Shown piece by piece: positions 1,380 through 26,694 of a stretch of 36,254 nt of DNA. The translations under genes were made by a program, and so were the position numbers. Origin of the DNA: a virus (Duplodnaviria; Caudoviricetes); IMG/VR virus record IMGVR_UViG_3300023223_000317, positions 1 to 36,254 of that record, one strand, 5' to 3'. Within the stretch, counting starts at the first letter, position 1; each line of letters opens with the position of its first letter. The notes below the pieces were generated by a model. The model searched no databases. It was not told the DNA's origin and saw only the letters and a program-made list of their open reading frames with translations.

Positions 1380-1384
1380 TGATA

Positions 1385-1449
1385 GTGCTGGGTGCAAGAC
1401 ACTTTGTTCCCATAGAAGAGGTTTTCCCCTTGGTTCGCCTCCCCAGCAC
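1385..1449 (+). ncRNA. C4-antisense-like or leader RNA module
   Basis: 8-bp closing stem GTGCTGGG/CCCAGCAC enclosing hairpins GTG-caaga-CAC and GAGG...CCTC with a pyrimidine-rich loop. Confidence 0.5.
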
Positions 1450-1534
1450 ACGATTTAATAAGAATGAAGGGCGTGTTTAAGCAGCTAAGGGTATGCAGTA
1501 CCTTTCCAATTATACCCCAAAACCGTTTTAAGCA

Positions 1535-1667
1535 GAGTTGTTATTTGTGGTGGCGATGCCCTGAAATAGCGTAAGGGAAGTCCTGTTGTTCAGGCTGTGC
1601 CGGTTGTGACCCAAGAGCGCGTTAAATACGATACGAGTCACCAGCGCCCCTTCAAATAACAATTCTC
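1535..1667 (+). ncRNA. Multi-branched structured element
   Basis: Closing stem TTGTTATTTG (1538-1547)/CAAATAACAA (1653-1662), then GGCG/CGCC, with internal arms CCCT/AGGG, CCTG/CAGG and GTGAC/GTCAC. Confidence 0.55.
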
Positions 1668-1685
1668 AGTTACATTCAATAACCA

Positions 1686-2325
1686 GGCTGATCCTGACGA
1701 AAACGCAGCCGACCAAAGTAACGTATAACTACCGCACCAGCCAGTAAGCCGAAAGGAAACTGGCAAAGCATGGTCTTAGATCGTGTGGATATAGAGGGGT
1801 GTGGACTGCTCACCACAAGGGGCAGGGCATAAACAGGCGTATGGTGATATATGAAATTGCACTTTACAAAAAAAGATTTCAAGATTGATTGGTTTAGCGG
1901 GACTGGCGCAGGTGGCCAGCATCGTAATAAACACCAGAACTGTTGTCGAATTACTCATATCGAGACAGGACTGCGCGCTCAAGGTACGGAAGCAAGAGAG
2001 CGTATATCCAATCAGAAGAAAGCTTTTGAACGTCTAACTAGATTACTAACATCTCATTATTCTGCTGACCCTGAAGGGCGTAGAAATACCTCAGAAGTCA
2101 TTCGTAACTATCATGCCGAAAGGAATGAGGTTAAGGATAAAGTTTCGGGTAAAACTATGCTTTATACAGATGTTGTCGGGAAAGGCGATATTGGCGAGAT
2201 GATAGAAGCTAGACGGCGTGCAATGATTGAAAAGTAGGGCAGTCCGGCAAGACTGAGTAATAAACTGTGACCTGATAAGTGTAGTTATATGATTAGTGGG
2301 CTATAGGATTATGGTAGGGATCACC
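1686..2325 (+). ncRNA. Long-range nested pairing domain enclosing the release-factor-like ORF
   Basis: Co-linear helices 1689-1695/2317-2323, 1707-1716/2293-2302 (2 mismatches), 1722-1732/2281-2291 and 1802-1811/2237-2246; GAAA tetraloop hairpin at 1740-1764. Confidence 0.5.
1851..2237 (+). CDS. Minimal class-1 peptide chain release factor homologue (GGQ peptidyl-tRNA hydrolase domain)
   Basis: SGTGAGGQHRNK...CRITHIETG...R...NQKKAFERL is the RF-1 catalytic domain signature; IRNYH...RNEVKD resembles the RF1/RF2 IRTYN...RVTD segment. Confidence 0.92.
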   Translation: MKLHFTKKDFKIDWFSGTGAGGQHRNKHQNCCRITHIETGLRAQGTEARERISNQKKAFERLTRLLTSHYSADPEGRRNTSEVIRNYHAERNEVKDKVSGKTMLYTDVVGKGDIGEMIEARRRAMIEK

Positions 2326-2370
2326 AACCCCTCTAATTGATAGCTATGCTTAATTAATGAGGAGAATGAA

Positions 2371-2807: not shown

Positions 2808-3020
2808 ATGTGGAACTTTGAACTAGTTAAAAAGTTTATGGCTCAGAAGTGCGAGTGCGGCCAGCAGCGTAGATGTGAGATACAGAAGCGTTTAACAATC
2901 ACTGGCAATGGCGTGACCGCTGTACCGGCAGAGGCTTATATGAAGTGTGGTAAATCTCGCAAGCAGCTATTGGGGGTCAAAGCGTTAGAGCAGAAGCTTT
3001 CATCAAGCAGAGTGAAATAA
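2808..3020 (+). CDS. Hypothetical protein
   Basis: GGGAG SD; starts 1 nt after the previous stop. Confidence 0.65.
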   Translation: MWNFELVKKFMAQKCECGQQRRCEIQKRLTITGNGVTAVPAEAYMKCGKSRKQLLGVKALEQKLSSSRVK

Positions 3021-3023
3021 ACA

Positions 3024-3052
3024 TTGACGGTATCGCGTTACTGTATTACATT
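3024..3052 (+). promoter_or_regulatory. Putative sigma70 promoter followed by a short hairpin
   Basis: TTGACG-17 nt-TACATT; ATGTAGA/TCTACAT inverted repeat just downstream. Confidence 0.55.
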
Positions 3053-3097
3053 TATGTAGAGTTTGTTTCTACATGAATTTTAACTGAGGATATTGAG

Positions 3098-6142: not shown

Positions 6143-8365
6143 ATGGGAGTGATCAATAAAACGTCCACTCGACGACCTAAAATTCTATTTACAGCAAATG
6201 ATATTCAATCTTCTTCTGATGTTTTCAACGAAACGTTAGACGCATCAACAGTGGGTGGTGACCCCACAGTATCCACAATTGATTACAATAATACAGAAAT
6301 ACCCATTCCCGAACCCTTTAGAAAGCTTTATGGCGTTACGCAATTAATCAAGATAACAGTTGCCTCAAGTTCTACATCAACGCCGAGAGAGGCGGGTTTC
6401 GACTTCACTGGTTTTTCAATTGAAATGCCTAATGAACTAATCGATCAGTTTGGGTTTGTAGTTTATTCTCCACAACAACAGGGTGAAAATGGTAGCGGAT
6501 CACACTTACGTTATGGTATTCGCGCTTTTTTTGGTCAGAACACTACGCTGACTGCGCCATTTAGAGGATTTCAGGCGGCAAGAAATGACTTTGATGAGGA
6601 TGACGGCATAGGTACTTGTGGCTGGCAGGTTATCTCTTTCCATGAGTCTCAGTCTAATTTTGATTCGGGCGTTATTGACTGGGCAGACCCCTTTCAAATG
6701 TGCCGTATACGCTGTGAAGGGTTAGATACCCGTGATGGTTACGTGCCGGAAGTAGGAGAGACAGTAGAATTCTACATTGGCATGTTTTTCATGAATCAAC
6801 GCCAGGAAGCCGGATTTTTAGTTTCTGCCGATGATAATGATATTGAGCAGATGCACGGTGGATATCTAGGATTAAAAAATATTACATCTGTAACTCAGGG
6901 TGCAACTACAACAATCAACTTCCCCGATCATCCGTGGTCTAATGGCGATAAATTAAACTTCCGTATTGCTGGTGGAGGTATGACAGAGCTAGATGGTATT
7001 GGGCCTCTGACAATCTCAGGCGTAACTGCTACCTCTTTTGATATCGCCATTGATAGCACTTTATTCACTGCATTCACCACAGCAGTTAACAATTACGCTT
7101 ATACCGACCAAACAAACGGGACATTCTTTGGCCCTCATGCGGTTCATAATATCCCCCTTCAATTGTATGTAAATCCGGCTACCCTCGACGGTCAAGATGA
7201 AAACAAAATGACGTGGGATGATCTACGCTTCCTTGAAGCCGATGCTGGATGGCGGATATACAGTCATTTCGGATATTCAAGAACTACAGGGCGTCTGCCT
7301 TTTGCTGGACACCCTGATTTAACGCTATTAAACCCTGTTGATTTACAAGATGAGATTGATGGAACTAAAGCGGCATTCCAGGCTGAGGGGTTTAATAACG
7401 CCTTTCAGTTCTCTTCTTATCCTGAGGGGGCTCATAATGTCGATGTAATGGAAGCTCTTAGGGCTAACGGATATGTCACGGGATGGACAGTGACAGGGTC
7501 AGGCAATTGGCTTAAAAACTATCGGCTATTTCATTCAATGATGTACGGCGTTCAAGACCTAAACGGCTCAAGAGTCAATATTCAGGATGATTCCAGTGGG
7601 TCAGGAATTACAGAAGCTCTCATTCTTGCTCAGATAGATAGAGCCAAAGACTTTGGTGCGGTTGTTCACCTCTACTATCACGTTCCAGTAGACTTGACTC
7701 AGGAAACTACCGGCGCTCGGCAGATTTCATTAACTCAGCTAGATAATGTATTATCAGCATTGAGAACAGAATTAGATGCAAATCTAATGACTAATTATTC
7801 TGATCAGGAGCTATTTGCTGCTATGTCACAAACAACCGTTATCATTGGAAGTAATTTCGACGGCGGTACTAGCAGAACGCTTGTTGCTGATTCTGCTAGA
7901 TCGCACGCTAAATCATTAGCTTATACAGCATCGTCAGGCGATAAGATCACTGATTTGTTTTGTCATGTGAGAAATAATTCATCATCTGTTGATGCAAATG
8001 CAACCCTTTCATTGTACAAATTAGAATCTGGCGATATTACAGACCGTTTAGTTATGTCTAATTTTGTTATACCAGATACTACGGCAGAGCCTGACTTTCA
8101 GTTTTATACAGAATCTATTGATTGTAATTTAGAGACGGGTGTTCAATATATTGTTGTTCTCGAATCTGATGGCACATTATTGATATCTGATGATCTTGTA
8201 AGCGGTGAAGATTTGCAGATTAATTCTGGTGCTTCATGGCCGTTAAATTCAGACGATCCATTTACAGGTACAAATTCCACTAACGTCAATTATTCTATTG
8301 GTGGAACAGTCTTGCGAGGGGCTGGCGGTATAATGCGCCCCATCATGTCATCAATAACCTGCTAA
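6143..8365 (+). CDS. Large virion-associated protein with a polysaccharide deacetylase (CE4/NodB) domain
   Basis: Motifs VSADD, MTWDDLRFL...GWRIYSH, SYPEG and VHLYYH; inserted beta-rich module; beta-rich C-terminal domain. Confidence 0.75.
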   Translation: MGVINKTSTRRPKILFTANDIQSSSDVFNETLDASTVGGDPTVSTIDYNNTEIPIPEPFRKLYGVTQLIKITVASSSTSTPREAGFDFTGFSIEMPNELIDQFGFVVYSPQQQGENGSGSHLRYGIRAFFGQNTTLTAPFRGFQAARNDFDEDDGIGTCGWQVISFHESQSNFDSGVIDWADPFQMCRIRCEGLDTRDGYVPEVGETVEFYIGMFFMNQRQEAGFLVSADDNDIEQMHGGYLGLKNITSVTQGATTTINFPDHPWSNGDKLNFRIAGGGMTELDGIGPLTISGVTATSFDIAIDSTLFTAFTTAVNNYAYTDQTNGTFFGPHAVHNIPLQLYVNPATLDGQDENKMTWDDLRFLEADAGWRIYSHFGYSRTTGRLPFAGHPDLTLLNPVDLQDEIDGTKAAFQAEGFNNAFQFSSYPEGAHNVDVMEALRANGYVTGWTVTGSGNWLKNYRLFHSMMYGVQDLNGSRVNIQDDSSGSGITEALILAQIDRAKDFGAVVHLYYHVPVDLTQETTGARQISLTQLDNVLSALRTELDANLMTNYSDQELFAAMSQTTVIIGSNFDGGTSRTLVADSARSHAKSLAYTASSGDKITDLFCHVRNNSSSVDANATLSLYKLESGDITDRLVMSNFVIPDTTAEPDFQFYTESIDCNLETGVQYIVVLESDGTLLISDDLVSGEDLQINSGASWPLNSDDPFTGTNSTNVNYSIGGTVLRGAGGIMRPIMSSITC

Positions 8366-8968: not shown

Positions 8969-9249
8969 AAAGATTGACTGAGGCAATTACTGGCGTACCT
9001 GCTGCTGGTGCTGCTGGAGCGCCTTTGGCTAAAGGGGCTGAGTCGGCCCTGCCCGCGTATGAGCAGATACCCCAAATAGGCGACTACTTGATAACTCATG
9101 GCCCCTGGGTTTTGTCATGGGCTGAAGTGGCTAAGATAGCAGCATCTATTTATGTTATTCTATTATCATTAAAAATGTTGTGGATGGCAGGTCAAAAGGC
9201 CATTAAACTTACCAAGTGGATAAATAGCAAGATTAGAGTGGAGAAATAG
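8965..9249 (+). CDS. Single-TM membrane protein, holin-like
   Basis: One hydrophobic helix and a basic C-terminus; GAGGA SD. Confidence 0.55.
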   Translation: MKRLTEAITGVPAAGAAGAPLAKGAESALPAYEQIPQIGDYLITHGPWVLSWAEVAKIAASIYVILLSLKMLWMAGQKAIKLTKWINSKIRVEK

Positions 9250-9250
9250 G

Positions 9251-9529
9251 ATGGCAATTGCATTACTAAAAGACGCGCTTACTGGTACAACGCCTACCGA
9301 GCAAGTGGCTGTCCAAGTTGGCAATTTCACAGTCGCTATAACGGGCATATTTACAGGCTCGATTGTTCTTAAACGAAGATTACAAAATGGTGATGAGGAT
9401 GAGGTTGTGGCTACATATACCACCGCAGACCCACTTGATCGCAACGGATTCCAAGCTTCACCGGATTCAAGATATTTCTTTGATCCTAATATCTCATCTG
9501 GAGCGGCTAACGTATTACTGGAGCAATAA
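9251..9529 (+). CDS. Small beta-rich putative virion protein
   Basis: V.ITGIFTGSIVLKRR pattern; translational coupling with neighbours. Confidence 0.7.
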   Translation: MAIALLKDALTGTTPTEQVAVQVGNFTVAITGIFTGSIVLKRRLQNGDEDEVVATYTTADPLDRNGFQASPDSRYFFDPNISSGAANVLLEQ

Positions 9530-10578: not shown

Positions 10579-12031
10579 TGATCTATTAGCCGATAAGATG
10601 GCTACATTCTATGATGATCCGCTAGGCTTTGTGCTATTTGCTTATGACTGGGACCACGGCGACTTAAAAGGCTTTCATGGCCCCGATGTATGGCAGAGGG
10701 ACTACTTAGTTAATCTAGGCAACGCTATCAAGGATCGAGGTTTCAATGGTGTTGATCCGGTAGCTCCCATCCAGATAGCTACATCATCCGGTCACGGCAT
10801 AGGTAAGAGCGCCCTCACTGCCTGGTTATGCAACTTCCTCATGTCTACCAGGCCATTCTGCAAGGGTGTGGTGACTGCCAATACATCCCCTCAACTGCGC
10901 ACAAAGACCTGGGCTGAAATTCAAAAGTGGACGAAGCGATGTATAACGTGTGATTGGTTCAATATAACCGCCGGTCAACACATGTCGTTAAGCCACAAGC
11001 AACACCCTGAGAGCTGGCGAATCGATGCTCAGACCTGCGCCAAAGAGAATTCAGAGTCATTTGCTGGCTTACATGCGGCAAGCTCTACGCCTTTCTACAT
11101 CTTCGACGAGGCTAGTGCTGTTGATAACTCAATATGGGAAGTGTCGGAGGGCGGTCTGACTGATGGCGAGCCGATGTGGTTTGTGTTCGGTAATCCAACC
11201 AGGTCGAGCGGCACATTCTTTGAGGCGTTCAATCGGCAGAAGCATCGCTGGACAACCAACAGAATAGACTCCAGAACGGCAGCAATGACTAACAAGGTCA
11301 AAATACAGGAGTGGGTTGATGATTACGGCGAAGATTCAGATTTTGTGCGTGTACGGGTCAAGGGTGAGTTTCCACGTTCCGGTTCATGTCAGTTTATTTC
11401 AACTGAGGATGTAAACAACTGCATTGAATACAAGTCTATGGGGCATCATGAGCTTCCTATTGTGATTGGTGTCGATGTAGCGCGGTTCGGTGATGATCAG
11501 TCCATTATCTGTATACGCCAAGGCCGCAAGGTATGGCCGTTGCAGAAGTTCAGAGGCTTAGATACTATGTCCTTGGCCCATAAAGTGGCTGAATCCATTG
11601 ATCTGTATAACCCTGATGGCGTATTTATTGATGGTGGTGGCGTTGGCGGGGGTGTCATTGACCGGCTAACACAGCTTAATTACAAGGTGACTGAAGTTCA
11701 GTTTGGCGGCTCACCCAATGACAAGTCCAAATACAGAAACAAAAGGGCTGAAATGTGGGGTGATATGAAAGCCGGTATCGTTGCCGGTGTTGATCTACCT
11801 GATGATATAGATTTAAAGTCTGCATTGACTGCAGTTGAATACGGTTACAATGATAAGGATCAAATTCAGCTCGAGAAGAAAGATGACATGAAGAAGCGAG
11901 GACTGGCTTCACCGGACGAAGGCGATGGCGTTGGTTTAACTTATGCTTTCAAGATACCCGAGCGGTCACAGAAGTATAGCCGTAACAGACAAACACAAAC
12001 TAAGGTGGTTGATTATGATCCGTTCGGCTAA
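10565..12031 (+). CDS. terL: Terminase large subunit
   Basis: Walker A SGHGIGKS, Walker B IFDEAS, coupling motif GNPT, nuclease IGVDVARFGDD and SPDEGD. Confidence 0.97.
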   Translation: MSKTDDLLADKMATFYDDPLGFVLFAYDWDHGDLKGFHGPDVWQRDYLVNLGNAIKDRGFNGVDPVAPIQIATSSGHGIGKSALTAWLCNFLMSTRPFCKGVVTANTSPQLRTKTWAEIQKWTKRCITCDWFNITAGQHMSLSHKQHPESWRIDAQTCAKENSESFAGLHAASSTPFYIFDEASAVDNSIWEVSEGGLTDGEPMWFVFGNPTRSSGTFFEAFNRQKHRWTTNRIDSRTAAMTNKVKIQEWVDDYGEDSDFVRVRVKGEFPRSGSCQFISTEDVNNCIEYKSMGHHELPIVIGVDVARFGDDQSIICIRQGRKVWPLQKFRGLDTMSLAHKVAESIDLYNPDGVFIDGGGVGGGVIDRLTQLNYKVTEVQFGGSPNDKSKYRNKRAEMWGDMKAGIVAGVDLPDDIDLKSALTAVEYGYNDKDQIQLEKKDDMKKRGLASPDEGDGVGLTYAFKIPERSQKYSRNRQTQTKVVDYDPFG

Positions 12032-12452
12032 TGAGCAAGATGTTATCGAAATGATTGTCATGGGCAAGGCTATGCACCAGGAGTCAAGCTATCGTGATAT
12101 AGAGTTTAGTTCGGCTGTATTTGAACATACCTTGCTTACTTGCATCCAGGAAGACGAAGCGCTGGTCATGGTAGATGAGCATGAAGGCGAATTGCGTGGA
12201 ATGTTCGTAGGGTTTTACCAGCATCATTTCTTTTCAACCAAGACCGTAGCCTCAGATTTGTTGCTCTATGTTAAACCTGAGCTAAGGAGTGGTAGAATAG
12301 GCTATAATCTGGCGAAGGCTTATACTGATTGGGGTGAGTCTGTGGCCGATGATGTGCAAGTTGGTATTACAACCGGTGTAAATGAGAAGGGGACGCAGCG
12401 TCTTTATGAGGCGTTAGGCTATAAGCAATGTGGAATTATTCTCAAGAGGTGA
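12015..12452 (+). CDS. GNAT-family acetyltransferase
   Basis: MIRSANEQD...LYVKPELRSGRIG...RLYEALGY; start revised from 11943 (AAGGTGG SD before ATG 12015). Confidence 0.85.
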   Translation: MIRSANEQDVIEMIVMGKAMHQESSYRDIEFSSAVFEHTLLTCIQEDEALVMVDEHEGELRGMFVGFYQHHFFSTKTVASDLLLYVKPELRSGRIGYNLAKAYTDWGESVADDVQVGITTGVNEKGTQRLYEALGYKQCGIILKR

Positions 12453-20761: not shown

Positions 20762-23080
20762 ATGCCCAAAATACCTCAATTTCAAGCTGATACACGATTA
20801 AGGACCGGTGGTGCGTCTATCAGCCCCGGCGCTGCTGGTGCTGTGAGTCAGGCTGTTTCGGGGCTTGCCACTACAGTCACAAGCATAGCTACAGCCGCTG
20901 TTAACCGTCAACGGGATGCAGAAGACGCGGCTTTTGCTACAGAGCAAAGTAATTCACTGTCTCGTCGATGGACTGAGCGACAAATAGAACTTGAGCAATC
21001 CGGTGAAGATGTTGATCTTGAAGGGCTGAAGAAAGAATACGACGATGATGTGGCCGCCACTTTAAAGAACGCGCCAAGTGATCGTGTATCAGCCTCATTG
21101 AAACGAACCTTTGATAACAACTTCAGCAATAAAGTATTTCCTTCCATGGCTCGGCATCAGGCCGGGAGGAATGTTGAGAAGCGTGTGTCCTCAGTTAATA
21201 CGGCCCTGGATGACATTAACTCAGAAGTCTTAACAGGTCGTACTGATATCACAGAGGCATTAGCTAGGGCTGAATCGGCTATTGTGGGCCTTGAACAGAC
21301 TACCGGCGGTGTTGTTGATACGGCCAAGTTGAGAGAATCGACCCGCAATGATATAGGTCGAAACGCCTTATCTTCGCTGATGGAGTCTGATCCACAAGAA
21401 GCTTTAAGTCAGATGAATGCCGGGGATTGGGATAAATTTACTAGCGCTGAAGATTTAAAGTTCCTGCGTAAATCGGCAAAGAAAAATATTGCGGACAATG
21501 CATCTATTGCACAAAAACAACAGGCCGCATCGAATGCGTTGCTTGCCTCTGATCTTGAGATTAGCGTTAACCGCAATGAAGCCACGTTTAAAGATATTGA
21601 CGACGCCCTTAAAAAGGGAATAATTACTCCGGCCAAGCGTACTCAATTAGTTAAATCCTTGGATGCTGAATCGTTAAAGTTAAGAGATGAAGCGAATATT
21701 CTCAGTAAAGTGCGGTTGTCTTTAGGTGCTGGAATACCGCTTGACCCTACGTCTACAGAGGACAAGGAAGGCGTTGATCTGATGTGGAATGAATTGGCCC
21801 CGAGTTATTCTGAACTGCCTGCTGATGAATTCTCTGCCAAAGCTGTAGATTTTATCAAACAGACCAATATTCTACCAGCTACCCTTAAAGGCTCAATTGC
21901 TGCATTCAGTCGATCAGGCGATACAGGGCAAGCCATGCAAGCGGCTGACCTGGTAGGGCGTATGGTTGAAGAAGCCTTACCGGCTGTTAATGATCTAACC
22001 GATGAAACAAAGGCTCAGAGCCTGATGATCATGGACCAAGTGAGAAGTGGTATCGCGCCAGGTAAAGCGATTGAAAACGCCCGAACAGCAACCTTTGGGC
22101 TAGTAGAAAGTGAGAAAGCTGTTATCAGGGAGCAATCCCGAATTGCCGCACCTGATTTAAAGAGCAGTCTTGATACTTTTGTTGATCAGACCTTTGATCC
22201 GTCCAACATCCCGTTCTTTGGCGAAGAGCCTGACGTTACCCCCGCCATGCTGGGTGAATACCGTGTTTCATTTGATCGTTTTATGCAATTAACCCGTGGT
22301 GATATTGAACAGTCTCAGAAATTAGCCTTTCAGGGAATTACTAAGGTATGGGGTGTGACCGAAGTTGGGGGTGAATCTCGCTTCATGAAGTATGCCCCTG
22401 AGTCTGTTTATCGTATCCCGGGGGTAGATAATCAGTGGATGGAGAATCAATTCAACGAGGAAATGGCTTTGCTGGGCGCAGAAGGTGCTATTTTAGCAAC
22501 AAATTCTGACGTTGCTCGATCTGAAAAACCGGCATATCCTATTTTGGTTCCTAATGAAGATGGATTAATTGAGCCTTTCACAGATGAAAATAATGTAGGA
22601 CAGACATGGCAGCCTGATTTTAAGCTTACGCTGGAATTTGAAGAGTTGAATGAAACTCCTTCGCCGGTCGAAGAAGCCAAGAAGCAACGAACTTTTAACC
22701 AGCAGCGGCGACAGGTTCATGTAAAGAGCATGGTGGAGACTCGCGTTAGAGGTGCGTTACCGTTTGAGATAAGGCTTGATATTGAATCGGATCGGGCCCG
22801 TGAACAGGCTGTCAATACTGTTGGCAACCTATTATCTGCTGAAAGAATCAACGGCCAAGAGGCTAAGCAGTATCTTGAATTGAGAGGGTTGGAATTTACC
22901 GAGCAAATGCAGGCCGTTATCGATAAGCAAAAGGGCGGCCGGGCAGCAAAAGCACAGTTCAGAAAAGAGCGTGAAGCAGCAGCCGCATTAGCCCGTGCAG
23001 AGTTTGTTGATGTTATAGGCGCTCCCGGTAGAGCTATAGCCAGAACCACTAAAGCCTTGCAAACATTGAGCAAAGAATAA
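20762..23080 (+). CDS. Internal virion (ejection) protein
   Basis: MPKIP start, 772 aa, mostly helical; position. Confidence 0.8.
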   Translation: MPKIPQFQADTRLRTGGASISPGAAGAVSQAVSGLATTVTSIATAAVNRQRDAEDAAFATEQSNSLSRRWTERQIELEQSGEDVDLEGLKKEYDDDVAATLKNAPSDRVSASLKRTFDNNFSNKVFPSMARHQAGRNVEKRVSSVNTALDDINSEVLTGRTDITEALARAESAIVGLEQTTGGVVDTAKLRESTRNDIGRNALSSLMESDPQEALSQMNAGDWDKFTSAEDLKFLRKSAKKNIADNASIAQKQQAASNALLASDLEISVNRNEATFKDIDDALKKGIITPAKRTQLVKSLDAESLKLRDEANILSKVRLSLGAGIPLDPTSTEDKEGVDLMWNELAPSYSELPADEFSAKAVDFIKQTNILPATLKGSIAAFSRSGDTGQAMQAADLVGRMVEEALPAVNDLTDETKAQSLMIMDQVRSGIAPGKAIENARTATFGLVESEKAVIREQSRIAAPDLKSSLDTFVDQTFDPSNIPFFGEEPDVTPAMLGEYRVSFDRFMQLTRGDIEQSQKLAFQGITKVWGVTEVGGESRFMKYAPESVYRIPGVDNQWMENQFNEEMALLGAEGAILATNSDVARSEKPAYPILVPNEDGLIEPFTDENNVGQTWQPDFKLTLEFEELNETPSPVEEAKKQRTFNQQRRQVHVKSMVETRVRGALPFEIRLDIESDRAREQAVNTVGNLLSAERINGQEAKQYLELRGLEFTEQMQAVIDKQKGGRAAKAQFRKEREAAAALARAEFVDVIGAPGRAIARTTKALQTLSKE

Positions 23081-26000
23081 TGCCTATCATCCCTGAGACT
23101 CAAGTGGCTGGCATTAACCCGATCCAGACTTTACCGAATCAGGAAGACCCCGTATTGGTTCAAGAAGACTCGCCTTCGGTATCTGAGGTCTTTGGTGCGG
23201 CTTTTCGACAGGAAAATACATTAGTCTCATGGGCTTCAAATAACCTTAGCCTGTCCGGCGAAAATGAACCTGTTGATGGCTATGACGCCTTGGATGATGT
23301 TGAAGGTTATGAGATGTTCGCTCAAAACTTCATTGAATCCAATAACCCAGGCATGACTTCGCGTATTAAAGAACAAATTGATTTAGAGCAGCAGGACAAA
23401 CAAACATTAGCCGCCGGCGGTGTTACAGGCTTTGTGGCTCAAGTCGCCGCTGGCATATCTGATCCTATGTATTGGCCTTTATTGGCTATTCCCGGTGGTG
23501 CGGCTATTCGTACCAGTAAAACGATAGGACAAGCCAGTAGAAGAGTCGCGGCAATAGGCGGTATATCAGAAATCCCAGCAGAGGCCGCAAAACAGTACAC
23601 ACAGGAAACTCGCACAGTTGGTGAGAGTCTTGCCATCATTGCAGGCGCAACGGCTCTATCTGGCATTCTAGGCGGTGCGGTGAAGTCCCTATCAAAGCAG
23701 GAATATAAATCGATTTCCAAAAAGGTCGATGATTTACTGCAAAATGACGAGCCAGAGCTTGTTACCGGCAATATGCAGAGTATGGGCGCGGCCAGAGTTA
23801 GGGAATTGACACAAGAGGAATTGGAGCTTGTGCCGGTTGCAGGACTTGAGAGCTTAGGCGTATCCCCGGTGCTTAGATCATCAACTTCTCCCTCTGTATC
23901 AACACGTCAAACTAATGCAAACATGATGGAATCCCCCTTTGTTACCAAGGGTAACGTGGAAGGTGTAACGGTTGTACCCGAGGGCGGTGCTGTAGAGACT
24001 CGCATTAAGCTATGGGATGCAGGGCTAGCTCAAGGTATCGAGAAGATTGATGAACTTTATACAGCGTATCGAAGTGGGCTGAAGGGCGTTAAGCGTATTG
24101 TTAATGATTATGTGATGCGGAATCGAGCGGGCGCATTAACGGCTAAAGAATTTAGAGAAGAAGTCGGTCGGACTATGCGCCGGGGCGATGTATCAGATAT
24201 TCCCGAAGTACAGCAAGCGGCTGAGTTTTTCCGCAAAAATGTCTTTGACCCCATGAAAGACGCAGCGATCAAACAGAAGTTACTACCACCTGATGTGGAT
24301 GTGGCAACAGCTGTATCCTATTTAACCCGTGTTTACAATACGACCAAGATAGCCGCTAAGCGGGGTGAATGGGACTCTGTTGTTGAGGGTTGGCTAGGTC
24401 GTATACGTGGCCGTGCGATCGCTGACGTTGAGGTAAGAAAAGTTGAAGCTGAAAAACAGATACCAGATGAATTTATTGAATCTGATATTTCTACATTGGA
24501 TCTTCTTGATAGAGACATTATTGATCGGCTCCCTGAATTTCAGCAAGATGCGGTCAAAGATTTTTCAGGGATCGGGTCGATTCAGATAAATAAAAAGCTT
24601 CGAGCAGGCGAAGACCCTAGAAGTCGTAGACTTTTAGGCAGTACCGAAGGGCTTGATTTTGCTATAGAAGAAGCTCCATTACCCTCTGATGTTAGACTTT
24701 TTAGAAAAATTGATGGTGCTGATGTGCCAGAGCTAAAAGAAAATCTTGCTGGGAAAACTTTTACAGATAAAGGCTATTTATCTACTAGCACAAAAGAAGA
24801 AGTAATACGAAAATTTGATGATAGTTTTGAAGGCGAAGCTAAAACTCTTAAGGAGCCAGTAATATTTAAAATTAATGCCGCCAAAGGGGAAGACGCACTG
24901 CCTTTGCCGGGTGCGGAAAAGGAAGTCTTATTACCAAGAAATGCTGTCCTGAATGTAGTTTCAGATGAGATTATAAAAGGGGAAAGAGTAATAGTTGCAA
25001 ATTATGGAGCTCCCAAAATTGGATTAAAGAAAACAAAAGCCCCAAGGATTTCTGCCTCTCTGGTCGAACAGGCAGAAATGTCAGATATAACGATCAAAGC
25101 CATTGCTGATGATATTACTAATGCCATTATGGGCAATGCTTCCGGGCGCATTCCTTATGAGATCATTCCCAATGTTCGTGGCCCACTGAAAGAGCGTACC
25201 TTCAATATCCCTGATGAGCTGATTGAGGACTTCCTGGAGTCTGATGTTGATTTGGTTGCGCGTCAATATACCCGGACTATGGCCCCTGATATTGAATTGA
25301 ATCGCATGTTCGGAAGTTCAGATTTAGCTCAGCAAGTTGAAGACATTGCATCCAGCTATAAACCTTTGATTGATAAGGCGAAAACAGAAAAGGACAGAAT
25401 TAAGCTCAAGAAACGCATGGAAGGTGATATTCGTGATATTGAAGCTATGCGTGATATGTTGCGCGGGACTTATCGAGTACCAGAAGATCCTGATTCGTTC
25501 TTTATTCGCGCCGGTAGAACTTTAAGGGATGTTAATTTCGTCCGCATGTTGGGTGGCATGACCATATCAGCAATACCAGACCTTGCTAGGCCCATTGCGG
25601 TTAATGGTTTACGGCCAGTAGCCAGAGGATTAAAGGCGTTGGCATTCTCTGGTGAAAAGTTCAAAATGGCTAAAGCTGAAGCCAAGAAAAATGCAATCGG
25701 CCTAGATATGGTGATTAATTCACGTGTGTCTTCATTGGCTGATATTACTGATATTTATAACCGGGCAACTCCGTTTGAGCGTGGCTTAAGGGCTATGTCT
25801 GATGTGTTTGGCAAAATGACCTTAATGAGTCAGTGGAATGCCGGTCTAAAGCAGTTTGTAGGTGTTGTCACTCAAGACAGAATACTGGAAGAGTCAATCA
25901 AGTTAGCTGCCGGTAAAGCCTCTAAAAACTCTATTCGTCGATTGGCAACAAGCGGTATCGATAAAGAGCTGGCAAAACGTATAGCAAGAGAGTTCAAAAA

Positions 26001-26694
26001 GCACGGCACAGATGGAGATGTTAAACTGTCTAACGGGCATTTATGGATTGATGATCAAGAGGCTATGGAGGCCCTAAAGGCTGCTGTACTGAAAGATGTT
26101 GATAGGGCCATAATTACACCAGGCAAAGGTGAAAAACCGCTGTGGACCAGCTCAGAGACAGGAAAGATGGTATTCCAGTTCAAGAGCTTTGCCGCTTCAG
26201 CTCATCAAAAGATATTAATTGCTGATTTGCAGCATCGAGATGCACAGGCTTTGAGTGGGTTCCTAATGTCTGTAGCCCTTGGCTCAGCTAGTTACGGAAT
26301 GAAAGAATTCGTTGCAGGGCGTGAAATATCTGATGATCCGAGTAAAATACTCGTAGAGTCGCTGGATAGATCAGGGGCTTTCGGTTATTTTTGGGATACG
26401 AACAACATTATTGAGAAGATGACCCGTGGTGAGGTAGGTGTTAATAAGCTGATTGGTGCACCTCCTATGTCACGTTATCAGTCACGCAATATATTAGGGT
26501 CGTTACTTGGGCCTTCAGTCGGTACAGTCCAGGATATAGCGCAAATAACCGGAGCTATATCGACCGGTGAGATTGGTAAAAGTGAAATTCGTAAAATTAG
26601 GCGATTATTACCGATGCAGAATTTATTTTATATGCGTCAATTATTAACTGAATTAGAAGACAAAACAGCAGAATCATTAGGAGTGCAGCAATGA
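23080..26694 (+). CDS. Large internal virion protein with an inserted ADP-ribosyltransferase domain
   Basis: Ejection-protein motifs (AAFRQENT, YLTRVYN, QFKSF, LLP.QN) plus ART motifs R542, S568-T-S570 and E613-K-E615. Confidence 0.88.
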   Translation: MPIIPETQVAGINPIQTLPNQEDPVLVQEDSPSVSEVFGAAFRQENTLVSWASNNLSLSGENEPVDGYDALDDVEGYEMFAQNFIESNNPGMTSRIKEQIDLEQQDKQTLAAGGVTGFVAQVAAGISDPMYWPLLAIPGGAAIRTSKTIGQASRRVAAIGGISEIPAEAAKQYTQETRTVGESLAIIAGATALSGILGGAVKSLSKQEYKSISKKVDDLLQNDEPELVTGNMQSMGAARVRELTQEELELVPVAGLESLGVSPVLRSSTSPSVSTRQTNANMMESPFVTKGNVEGVTVVPEGGAVETRIKLWDAGLAQGIEKIDELYTAYRSGLKGVKRIVNDYVMRNRAGALTAKEFREEVGRTMRRGDVSDIPEVQQAAEFFRKNVFDPMKDAAIKQKLLPPDVDVATAVSYLTRVYNTTKIAAKRGEWDSVVEGWLGRIRGRAIADVEVRKVEAEKQIPDEFIESDISTLDLLDRDIIDRLPEFQQDAVKDFSGIGSIQINKKLRAGEDPRSRRLLGSTEGLDFAIEEAPLPSDVRLFRKIDGADVPELKENLAGKTFTDKGYLSTSTKEEVIRKFDDSFEGEAKTLKEPVIFKINAAKGEDALPLPGAEKEVLLPRNAVLNVVSDEIIKGERVIVANYGAPKIGLKKTKAPRISASLVEQAEMSDITIKAIADDITNAIMGNASGRIPYEIIPNVRGPLKERTFNIPDELIEDFLESDVDLVARQYTRTMAPDIELNRMFGSSDLAQQVEDIASSYKPLIDKAKTEKDRIKLKKRMEGDIRDIEAMRDMLRGTYRVPEDPDSFFIRAGRTLRDVNFVRMLGGMTISAIPDLARPIAVNGLRPVARGLKALAFSGEKFKMAKAEAKKNAIGLDMVINSRVSSLADITDIYNRATPFERGLRAMSDVFGKMTLMSQWNAGLKQFVGVVTQDRILEESIKLAAGKASKNSIRRLATSGIDKELAKRIAREFKKHGTDGDVKLSNGHLWIDDQEAMEALKAAVLKDVDRAIITPGKGEKPLWTSSETGKMVFQFKSFAASAHQKILIADLQHRDAQALSGFLMSVALGSASYGMKEFVAGREISDDPSKILVESLDRSGAFGYFWDTNNIIEKMTRGEVGVNKLIGAPPMSRYQSRNILGSLLGPSVGTVQDIAQITGAISTGEIGKSEIRKIRRLLPMQNLFYMRQLLTELEDKTAESLGVQQ

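Follow-up and report, generated by a model that had tools for sequence, protein, structure and literature searches.

The complete genome of a small phage encodes an intact, cut-down class-I release factor of 128 residues, and the gene lies inside the loop of a predicted pseudoknotted RNA. In our main reading, to which we assign a probability of roughly one half (0.52), the protein likely carries out codon-free peptide release on ribosomes with an empty A site, and its gene is an exchangeable cassette in an RNA that it likely does not need. By "window" we mean the whole stretch of DNA analysed, 36,254 bp. The coordinates of the gene and of the RNA parts are collected in Table 1.

Table 1. Features of the release-factor gene and the surrounding RNA in the window
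Feature	Position	Strand	Basis or remark
Further conserved noncoding module	1380..1545	+	Kept at about 90% in contig X1; not demonstrably part of the RNA
RNA 5' half	1732..1848	+	nhmmer/cmsearch matches; covariation
Parts of RNA 5' half: predicted three-way junction with GAAA hairpin; hairpin	1749-1756 (GAAA hairpin); 1806-1825 (hairpin)	+	
Helix X	1792-1799 with 2328-2335	+	Long-range, spans the ORF
Helix Z	1834-1839 with 2269-2274	+	Long-range, spans the ORF
Helix Y	1842-1848 with 2320-2326	+	Long-range, spans the ORF
Minimal class-I release-factor gene	1851..2237	+	128 aa; Pfam match, RF1/RF2 alignment, structure model
GGQ catalytic motif, codons 21-23	1911..1919	+	Family context GGQHRNKHQNCC; unvaried in the best 120 homologues
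RNA 3' half	2240..2348	+	Sequence matches; covariation
Hairpin H, CGGCAA loop	2240-2255	+	
Variable domain of the 3' half	Between the 3' strands of helix Z and helix Y	+	

A minimal release factor and its viral family

The window is a complete virus record bounded by terminal repeats of 144 bp. The genes for its head-tail connector, tail tube and internal virion proteins resemble those of podoviruses, in keeping with the preliminary description of a 36-kb podovirus. It is read in the standard code: its 38 genes end in TAA (21), TGA (12) or TAG (5) under table 11 and are intact, and a release factor serving an alternative code was rejected. Other genes of the window include one for a 1,204-aa internal virion-like protein (23080-26694) with an ADP-ribosyltransferase domain (PF03496, residues 483-634, E 5e-14), which resembles host-takeover enzymes injected by phages, and a GNAT acetyltransferase gene (11943-12452) between the terminase and the head-tail connector. 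A 740-aa ORF (6143-8365) follows a DUF5675 gene; its one hit, to polysaccharide deacetylase, is below threshold, and neither PHROG nor PADLOC matched it. All 4 proteins submitted to PADLOC were without a hit.

The release-factor ORF matched the Pfam RF-1 family (E 9e-17, 61.5 bits against a curated cut-off of 35) and aligned end to end with residues 217-343 of E. coli RF1 (30% identity) and approximately 230-363 of E. coli RF2 (29% identity). By alignment, it corresponds to domain 3 of RF1/RF2 together with the C-terminal portion of their domain 4: domain 3 with the GGQ spans residues ~5-72 and is followed by a shortened linker and by the domain-4 beta-meander with C-terminal helices (84-127). 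The AlphaFold model (mean pLDDT 88.5, pTM 0.55) has a domain-3 fold, then a loop, a beta-hairpin and two helices, and its best PDB fold matches are RF1/RF2. These results bear out a 128-aa ORF with GGQ at residues 21-23 and an RF1/RF2-like C-terminal segment, as first described. Domains 1-2 and the PxT/SPF motifs had been called absent, and indeed tblastn with RF1/RF2 domains 1-2 gave zero matches across the window (E 0.01) and the PCRF domain zero matches among the 62 window ORFs scanned. An in-frame stop upstream of the ORF leaves just 21 codons up to the GGQ, and therefore the N-terminus of the mini factor was not missed. We also considered a split release factor with domain 2 encoded elsewhere and rejected it; domain 2 was without a match in the window or at mini-factor loci, its matches being confined to loci among L167-L186, the carriers of longer relatives that bear domain 2.

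We compared the mini factor with known release and rescue factors. It shares with RF1/RF2 (PrfA/PrfB) the GGQ domain, the RxY/RVxD beta-meander and the terminal helix, at ~30% identity over its whole length, but it is viral, is without domains 1-2 and PxT/SPF, has a linker 10-11 residues shorter and carries the GGQHRNKHQNCC signature. Like ArfB/YaeJ, it is a GGQ domain standing alone without a codon reader, and it is of similar size. ArfB enters the empty mRNA channel with a basic unstructured tail and has no superdomain II/IV (PMC8012679), whereas the mini factor has a neutral, predicted-folded domain-4 remnant and scores 23 with the NCBIfam ArfB model against a cut-off of 100. Its C-terminal 30 residues hold 6 K/R and 5 D/E, compared with 11 and 2 in ArfB, and the median net charge of the final 30 residues is 0 in 144 family members, so that the claim of no ArfB-type basic tail holds. 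PrfH is likewise a rescue factor without domain 1 and derived from RF1/RF2; it recognizes the cut 16S end through domain 2, which it has retained, and is coupled with RtcB (PMC9304027), whereas the mini factor is without domain 2 and scores 41 with the PrfH model against a cut-off of 166.65. Profile and phylogenetic comparisons had been proposed in the preliminary description: the RF1, RF2, PrfH and ArfB models all match the mini factor only far below their cut-offs, and the mini factors fall outside RF1/RF2/PrfH in a quick tree.

In that tree (78 rows, 141 columns, unrooted), the mini factors share a 99-supported branch with relatives of ~190-235 aa, apart from RF1/RF2/PrfH. These relatives have the PCRF domain, keep domain 2 with an RF1-like PxT motif and are without domain 1. 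The distance from GGQ to R85 has a median of 64 in mini factors (measured in 142 of 151), compared with 74-75 in RF1, RF2 and PrfH, and the GGQ-to-domain-4 distance is 73-74 in 10 of 14 longer relatives. The mini factor may have arisen by stepwise loss from RF1. The domain-1-less relatives carry a GGQHRN signature and an LLW-like C-terminal end and are distinct from PrfH in the quick tree; longer relatives are found at L167, L170, L171, L173, L175, L177, L178 and L180-L186 and as P0272-P0293. At one of these loci (L171, 5803-9316; Pararhizobium sp. BT-229), behind the gene come three incomplete copies of its C-terminal half (6810-7130, 7468-7785 and 9032-9316). A further GGQ family of 105-121 aa (L166, L168, L169, L172, L174), with a different C-terminus and without the domain-4 motif, branches within the same group as the mini factors.

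The family proved to be widespread in viruses. A search for relatives gave 2,590 proteins, 70-224 aa in length, with E <=1e-5, a count that may take in fragments and neighbouring families; the best 120 of the 2,590 are 61-100% identical and 123-160 aa long. Scans of viral sequence confirmed 254 and 331 stretches for the mini-factor family. Prokaryotic genomes, 185,579 in all, yielded only 27 confirmed stretches, 5 of them close full-length relatives, all on contigs of at most 36 kb from metagenome bins. The three best Atlas clusters are 91-94% viral. We conclude that the mini-factor family is large, conserved and essentially viral; the gene is not peculiar to this phage, with relatives in other near-complete 36-42-kb records and in jumbo phages. 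Searching cultured phages with the mini factor by tblastn returned mainly ordinary bacterial prfA/prfB sequence, and two phage-collection hits (H4 and H23, at L368 and L369) are ordinary bacterial prfA-hemK and prfB regions, probably host DNA.

The preliminary description allowed for a dead release-factor fragment with a decayed GGQ, which does not apply here. The motif is unvaried in 120 of the best 120 of the 2,590 homologues and present in 137 of 150 profile hits, and most of the 13 without it start downstream of the motif, 2 having an altered one; the figure of 151 of 151 in the loci is biased, as some search patterns included GGQ. Median dN/dS is 0.093 in 124 pairs of relatives with at least 75% identity and unsaturated synonymous sites, the window gene being in no pair. 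In 151 full-length members the domain-4 residues R85, Y87, N92, V94, D96, S99 and R121 are 93-100% conserved, to the same degree as the GGQ loop. A non-catalytic decoy or remnant, for instance a PrmC sink or an A-site blocker, would suit a protein that is only half a release factor, and the 13 hits without GGQ, with their 2 altered motifs, could be counted for it; however, the strict conservation of the GGQ loop and a dN/dS of ~0.09 make such a role highly improbable.

Stand-alone GGQ proteins are already annotated in phages as "RF-1 domain peptide chain release factor" families (PHROG 20323 and 3122; BFVD). The two PHROG profiles cover only domain 3 (residues 3-71), whereas the mini-factor family also keeps domain 4. 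As far as its sequence tells, the mini factor is a real variant of a known enzyme domain that is generically annotated in phage databases. RF1, RF2, tmRNA and SmpB have been reported in huge phages (PMC7162821), rescue genes listed for jumbo phages include tRNAs, RNA ligases and PTH2 (PMC7824862), and the main text of PMC6514570 has 0 occurrences of "phage". The literature searched, which covered few subscription papers, yielded no published study of the mini-factor family or of the RNA described below.

A predicted pseudoknotted RNA around the gene

Both noncoding flanks of the release-factor gene match one other locus, L090, where the two RNA halves are nearly contiguous and lie just upstream of its own release-factor gene. 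Pattern scans of viral contigs gave 8, 0, 19, 41, 27 and 2 stretches, mostly chance, from which 11 distinct contigs were retained on profile score and visual inspection, bringing the total to 13 members. L298 (profile E 2.7) was retained on inspection, and L341/L357 (profile E 0.35) were excluded. Across these, core identity is 58-81% (median 64%) and the RNA measures ~270-350 nt without the insert. Its carriers are unrelated small phages with no protein common to all.

Helices Z and Y cross, forming a predicted pseudoknot, and helix X encloses both. Because MAFFT misaligned the middle of the RNA, helix pairs were counted from anchors by script, and model R1 is sequence-only. All 13 members form a Watson-Crick pair at the first variable position of Z, in three types (GC 7, CG 4, AT 2), and fixed-register pairing reaches 21 of 26 for Z and 36 of 39 for H. 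For X and Y the register was the best fit, and an identical best-fit search was applied to mismatched member pairs as the control; own strands paired at 5.92 of 7 positions versus 4.61 for cross pairs in Y, and at 7.62 of 8 versus 6.65 in X. The observed helix pairing was reached by 0 of 10,000 permutations, and by 0-1 of 10,000 when 3 close relatives were left out; the permutations ignore relatedness, and these figures are not probabilities. Folding z was -4.0 for L288 and -3.4 for window positions 1725-2345. The whole upstream gap, 1321-1850, was unremarkable (-0.18), and the RNA emerges only with the correct ends. On this covariation, we conclude that the flanks of the gene are two halves of a real RNA.

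Catalogued RNAs did not account for it. Rfam 15 covariance models (including GOLLD, ROOL, tmRNA and HEARO) gave 0 window hits at E 1 and no match on the RNA in L090 and 11 other loci at E 5. The topology, in our view, loosely resembles RNase P RNA type A, and RF00010 matched 0 of 5 records at E 10. The 5' junction resembles a c-di-GMP-I riboswitch, for which RF01051 gave a hit in 1 of 5 records at 10.8 bits against a cut-off of 35. Some group I introns carry endonuclease ORFs in peripheral loops of pseudoknotted RNA. The window likewise has an ORF in a peripheral loop of such an RNA, but RF00028 matches 0 of 5 records at E 10, no flanking exons are evident and the loop ORFs are not endonucleases. 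GOLLD and ROOL are pseudoknotted phage RNAs of unknown function, and the GOLLD linker can carry tRNA genes (PMC12286853); the present RNA differs in having no Rfam match, a size of ~270-350 nt and protein ORFs as its passengers. Further searches for the RNA gave no match in cultured phages by blastn, no holder listed in sequencing runs and no motif or sample-id match in the tables of candidate viral RNAs of PMC10690425, whose alignments may hold the motif. No protein cluster occurred in more than 4 of the 13 records, many of which are fragments, and promoter and terminator scans stayed at chance level.

Upstream of the RNA, contig X1 keeps the noncoding module of Table 1 and has 1546-1723 replaced, and run X2 keeps window stretches 1488-1528 and 1655-1711. 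Long hairpins of a similar kind occur in L090, together with a degenerate tRNA-like element (3013-3082).

A loop that takes exchangeable inserts

The release-factor ORF sits between the 5' strand of helix Y and hairpin H, bracketed by the long-range helices. Of the 13 members, 7 have a loop of 14-28 nt and 4 one of 87-101 nt; it reaches 209 nt in L312 and 393 nt in the window. The 87-101-nt form (L090, L266, L271, L343) is an optional RNA subdomain of shared sequence in the slot taken by the factor gene in the window. In L312 the insert is an ORF of 76 codons (1605-1835) that starts at the Y strand and encodes a basic, K/R-rich protein with a single homologue at 89% identity and no match in Pfam or PHROG. 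The clearest exchange is found in contig X1, a close relative that matches both RNA halves at ~90-95% and has 177 nt in place of exactly 1857-2234 (378 nt), with identical start and stop. Each length is divisible by three, and the part of the insert that was read (30 letters, ten codons) is open and unlike the release factor, suggesting that the insert is likely a different, 61-codon ORF. In run X2, the RNA 5' half runs into the beginning of the factor gene on a single 302-nt contig; a second, likewise single, contig extends from helix Z through a short loop to where hairpin H starts. We conclude that the loop is a slot for exchangeable inserts. As far as we could test, the RNA and its swappable gene slot are new.

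The position of the gene suggests how it may be expressed. The 5' strand of helix Y holds GGTGA, a Shine-Dalgarno-like sequence just before the release-factor ATG, which we infer to be a ribosome-binding site; the RNA 5' half would thus supply the site for the factor. Helix Y, a duplex of -10 kcal/mol, may gate expression: only once transcription has passed the ORF could the 5' half pair with the 3' half, and this pairing would lower output. In nested folding, adding the 3' half lowered the unpaired fraction of the Shine-Dalgarno-like stretch from 0.33 to 0.28 and that of the ATG from 0.94 to 0.55, and the damping step is weak because exposure of the former hardly changes.

The preliminary description had named the surrounding RNA as a candidate partner that recruits the factor. 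Its suspicion of the flanks was justified, as they are halves of a covarying RNA; the idea of a required recruiter is not supported, for gene and RNA mostly occur apart and unrelated inserts fill the same loop. PF00472 is present in 0 of the 11 other RNA-bearing records (2 of the 11 at least 90% complete). Conversely, L090 is the only one of 265 release-factor loci searched that has the RNA; the loci are redundant (175 distinct proteins besides the window's) and many are short. Among 50 whole factor records, the 1 weak RNA hit is AT-rich sequence without the motifs, leaving no credible hit. The RNA is therefore not an obligatory partner of the factor: because the two occur apart almost everywhere, the factor in most phages presumably gets by with no such RNA, which in turn is found where there is no factor.

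A facultative link between the two is conceivable. The gene lies ~25 nt after the RNA in L090 and inside it in the window, and two adjacent cases in different layouts are more than the rarity of both elements suggests. Against the cassette reading, these adjacencies must be put down to chance or a shared niche. One could instead propose that in some phages the RNA is a functional partner that replaces the lost domain 2 and positions the GGQ, the two forming a tag-free rescue pair. Two rare elements side by side in two layouts favour such a pair, as do factor proteins of the window and L090 that are 62.5% identical and lie in different, weakly supported subclades, and the X2 contig linking the RNA 5' half to the gene start. 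However, the RNA-bearing records without PF00472, the single RNA-bearing factor locus, the 50 whole records and the unrelated inserts in the same loop all speak against it, and both joint cases were found through the factor and are thus selected; we regard the pair as unlikely. A broader proposal is that the RNA represents a new pseudoknotted phage class serving as an expression slot or scaffold for small translation-directed ORFs, with start signals in its pairing strands, and that it sometimes joins with half a release factor in a tag-free rescue complex in which RNA replaces the codon-reading domain; taken whole, we consider this speculative and doubtful.

Likely function of the factor

Relatives of the gene often lie among translation genes. 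At 42 of the 76 loci with enough flank, tRNA genes occur within 2 kb of the mini-factor gene, and at 27 within 150 nt, both of them raw counts. This proximity spans 12 of 28 protein clusters (70% identity) and is uneven, with 37 of 51 loci in the clade of 40-55% identity and 4 of 22 in the closest clade (at least 55%). Because the closest clade contributes only these 4, the tRNA argument draws mainly on a distant clade that contains many near-copies. A tmRNA is near 3 of 60 mini-factor loci scanned; at L063, L066 and L080, a permuted tmRNA gene is 0.8-4.3 kb away from a mini release-factor gene that has tRNA-Met and tRNA-Arg on its flanks. Kinase and phosphoesterase genes are also among relatives' neighbours. 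No tRNA or tmRNA was found in the window. A conserved protein partner was sought and rejected, the largest neighbour clusters covering 12 of 176 loci. RtcB gave zero hits among the 62 window ORFs, and no RtcB-like recurrent neighbour was identified among the 6 neighbour clusters annotated.

Codon-independent ribosome rescue, one of the roles proposed in the preliminary description, appears the likeliest for the mini factor; it is in line with an intact GGQ, with purifying selection on the family and with the tRNA arrays around relatives. The protein would hydrolyse peptidyl-tRNA, for example after host nucleases have cut tRNA or mRNA, and would dock through its own domain-4 remnant rather than by a basic tail in the mRNA channel. 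Given a linker that falls 10-11 residues short of its RF1/RF2 counterpart, the remnant probably lies higher than in those factors, close to the interface between the subunits, which could let mRNA remain where it is.

The short linker can also be read differently. Mitochondrial C12orf65/mtRF-R works on split 50S subunits carrying peptidyl-tRNA, and the mini factor might act there too, not on 70S ribosomes. Loss of the whole 30S-reading domain 2 would agree with a 50S substrate, and C12orf65 is among the fold matches of the model (E 1.2e-3). However, the counterpart of the invariant domain-4 remnant in RF1/RF2 is part of the decoding-centre superdomain, the mini factor has no basic helix at its C-terminus, and we found no conserved S4-like or other partner gene near factor loci, so that we judge this substrate improbable.

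An unchecked releasing factor could also poison translation, which is a counterpoint to rescue. The protein might shut off the host by making elongating ribosomes release their peptides too early, with its own expression limited by the RNA context. The missing codon check, the place of the gene among small ORFs outside the virion genes and the Shine-Dalgarno-like site inside a pairing strand fit such a role; phage mRNAs would also be hit, however, and the tRNA, tmRNA, kinase and phosphoesterase genes around relatives fit translation support, and we give shut-off little credence.

Ribosome rescue by the mini factor would bear on how stalled ribosomes are recognized. The bacterial rescue factors known so far respond either to an mRNA channel that is empty, as do tmRNA, ArfA and ArfB, or to cleaved 16S rRNA, as does PrfH. 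The mini factor, only 128 residues long and kept in many phage proteins, has neither sensor and would indicate another route of peptide release. Such release might occur while mRNA still occupies the A site, for instance after a defence has cut tRNA; the protein is small and easy to assay. The flanks of its gene, in turn, form a phage RNA whose covariation is solid and which no catalogued family matches; because its loop accepts whole genes precisely from start to stop, this RNA can be tested as a regulator, ribozyme or scaffold.
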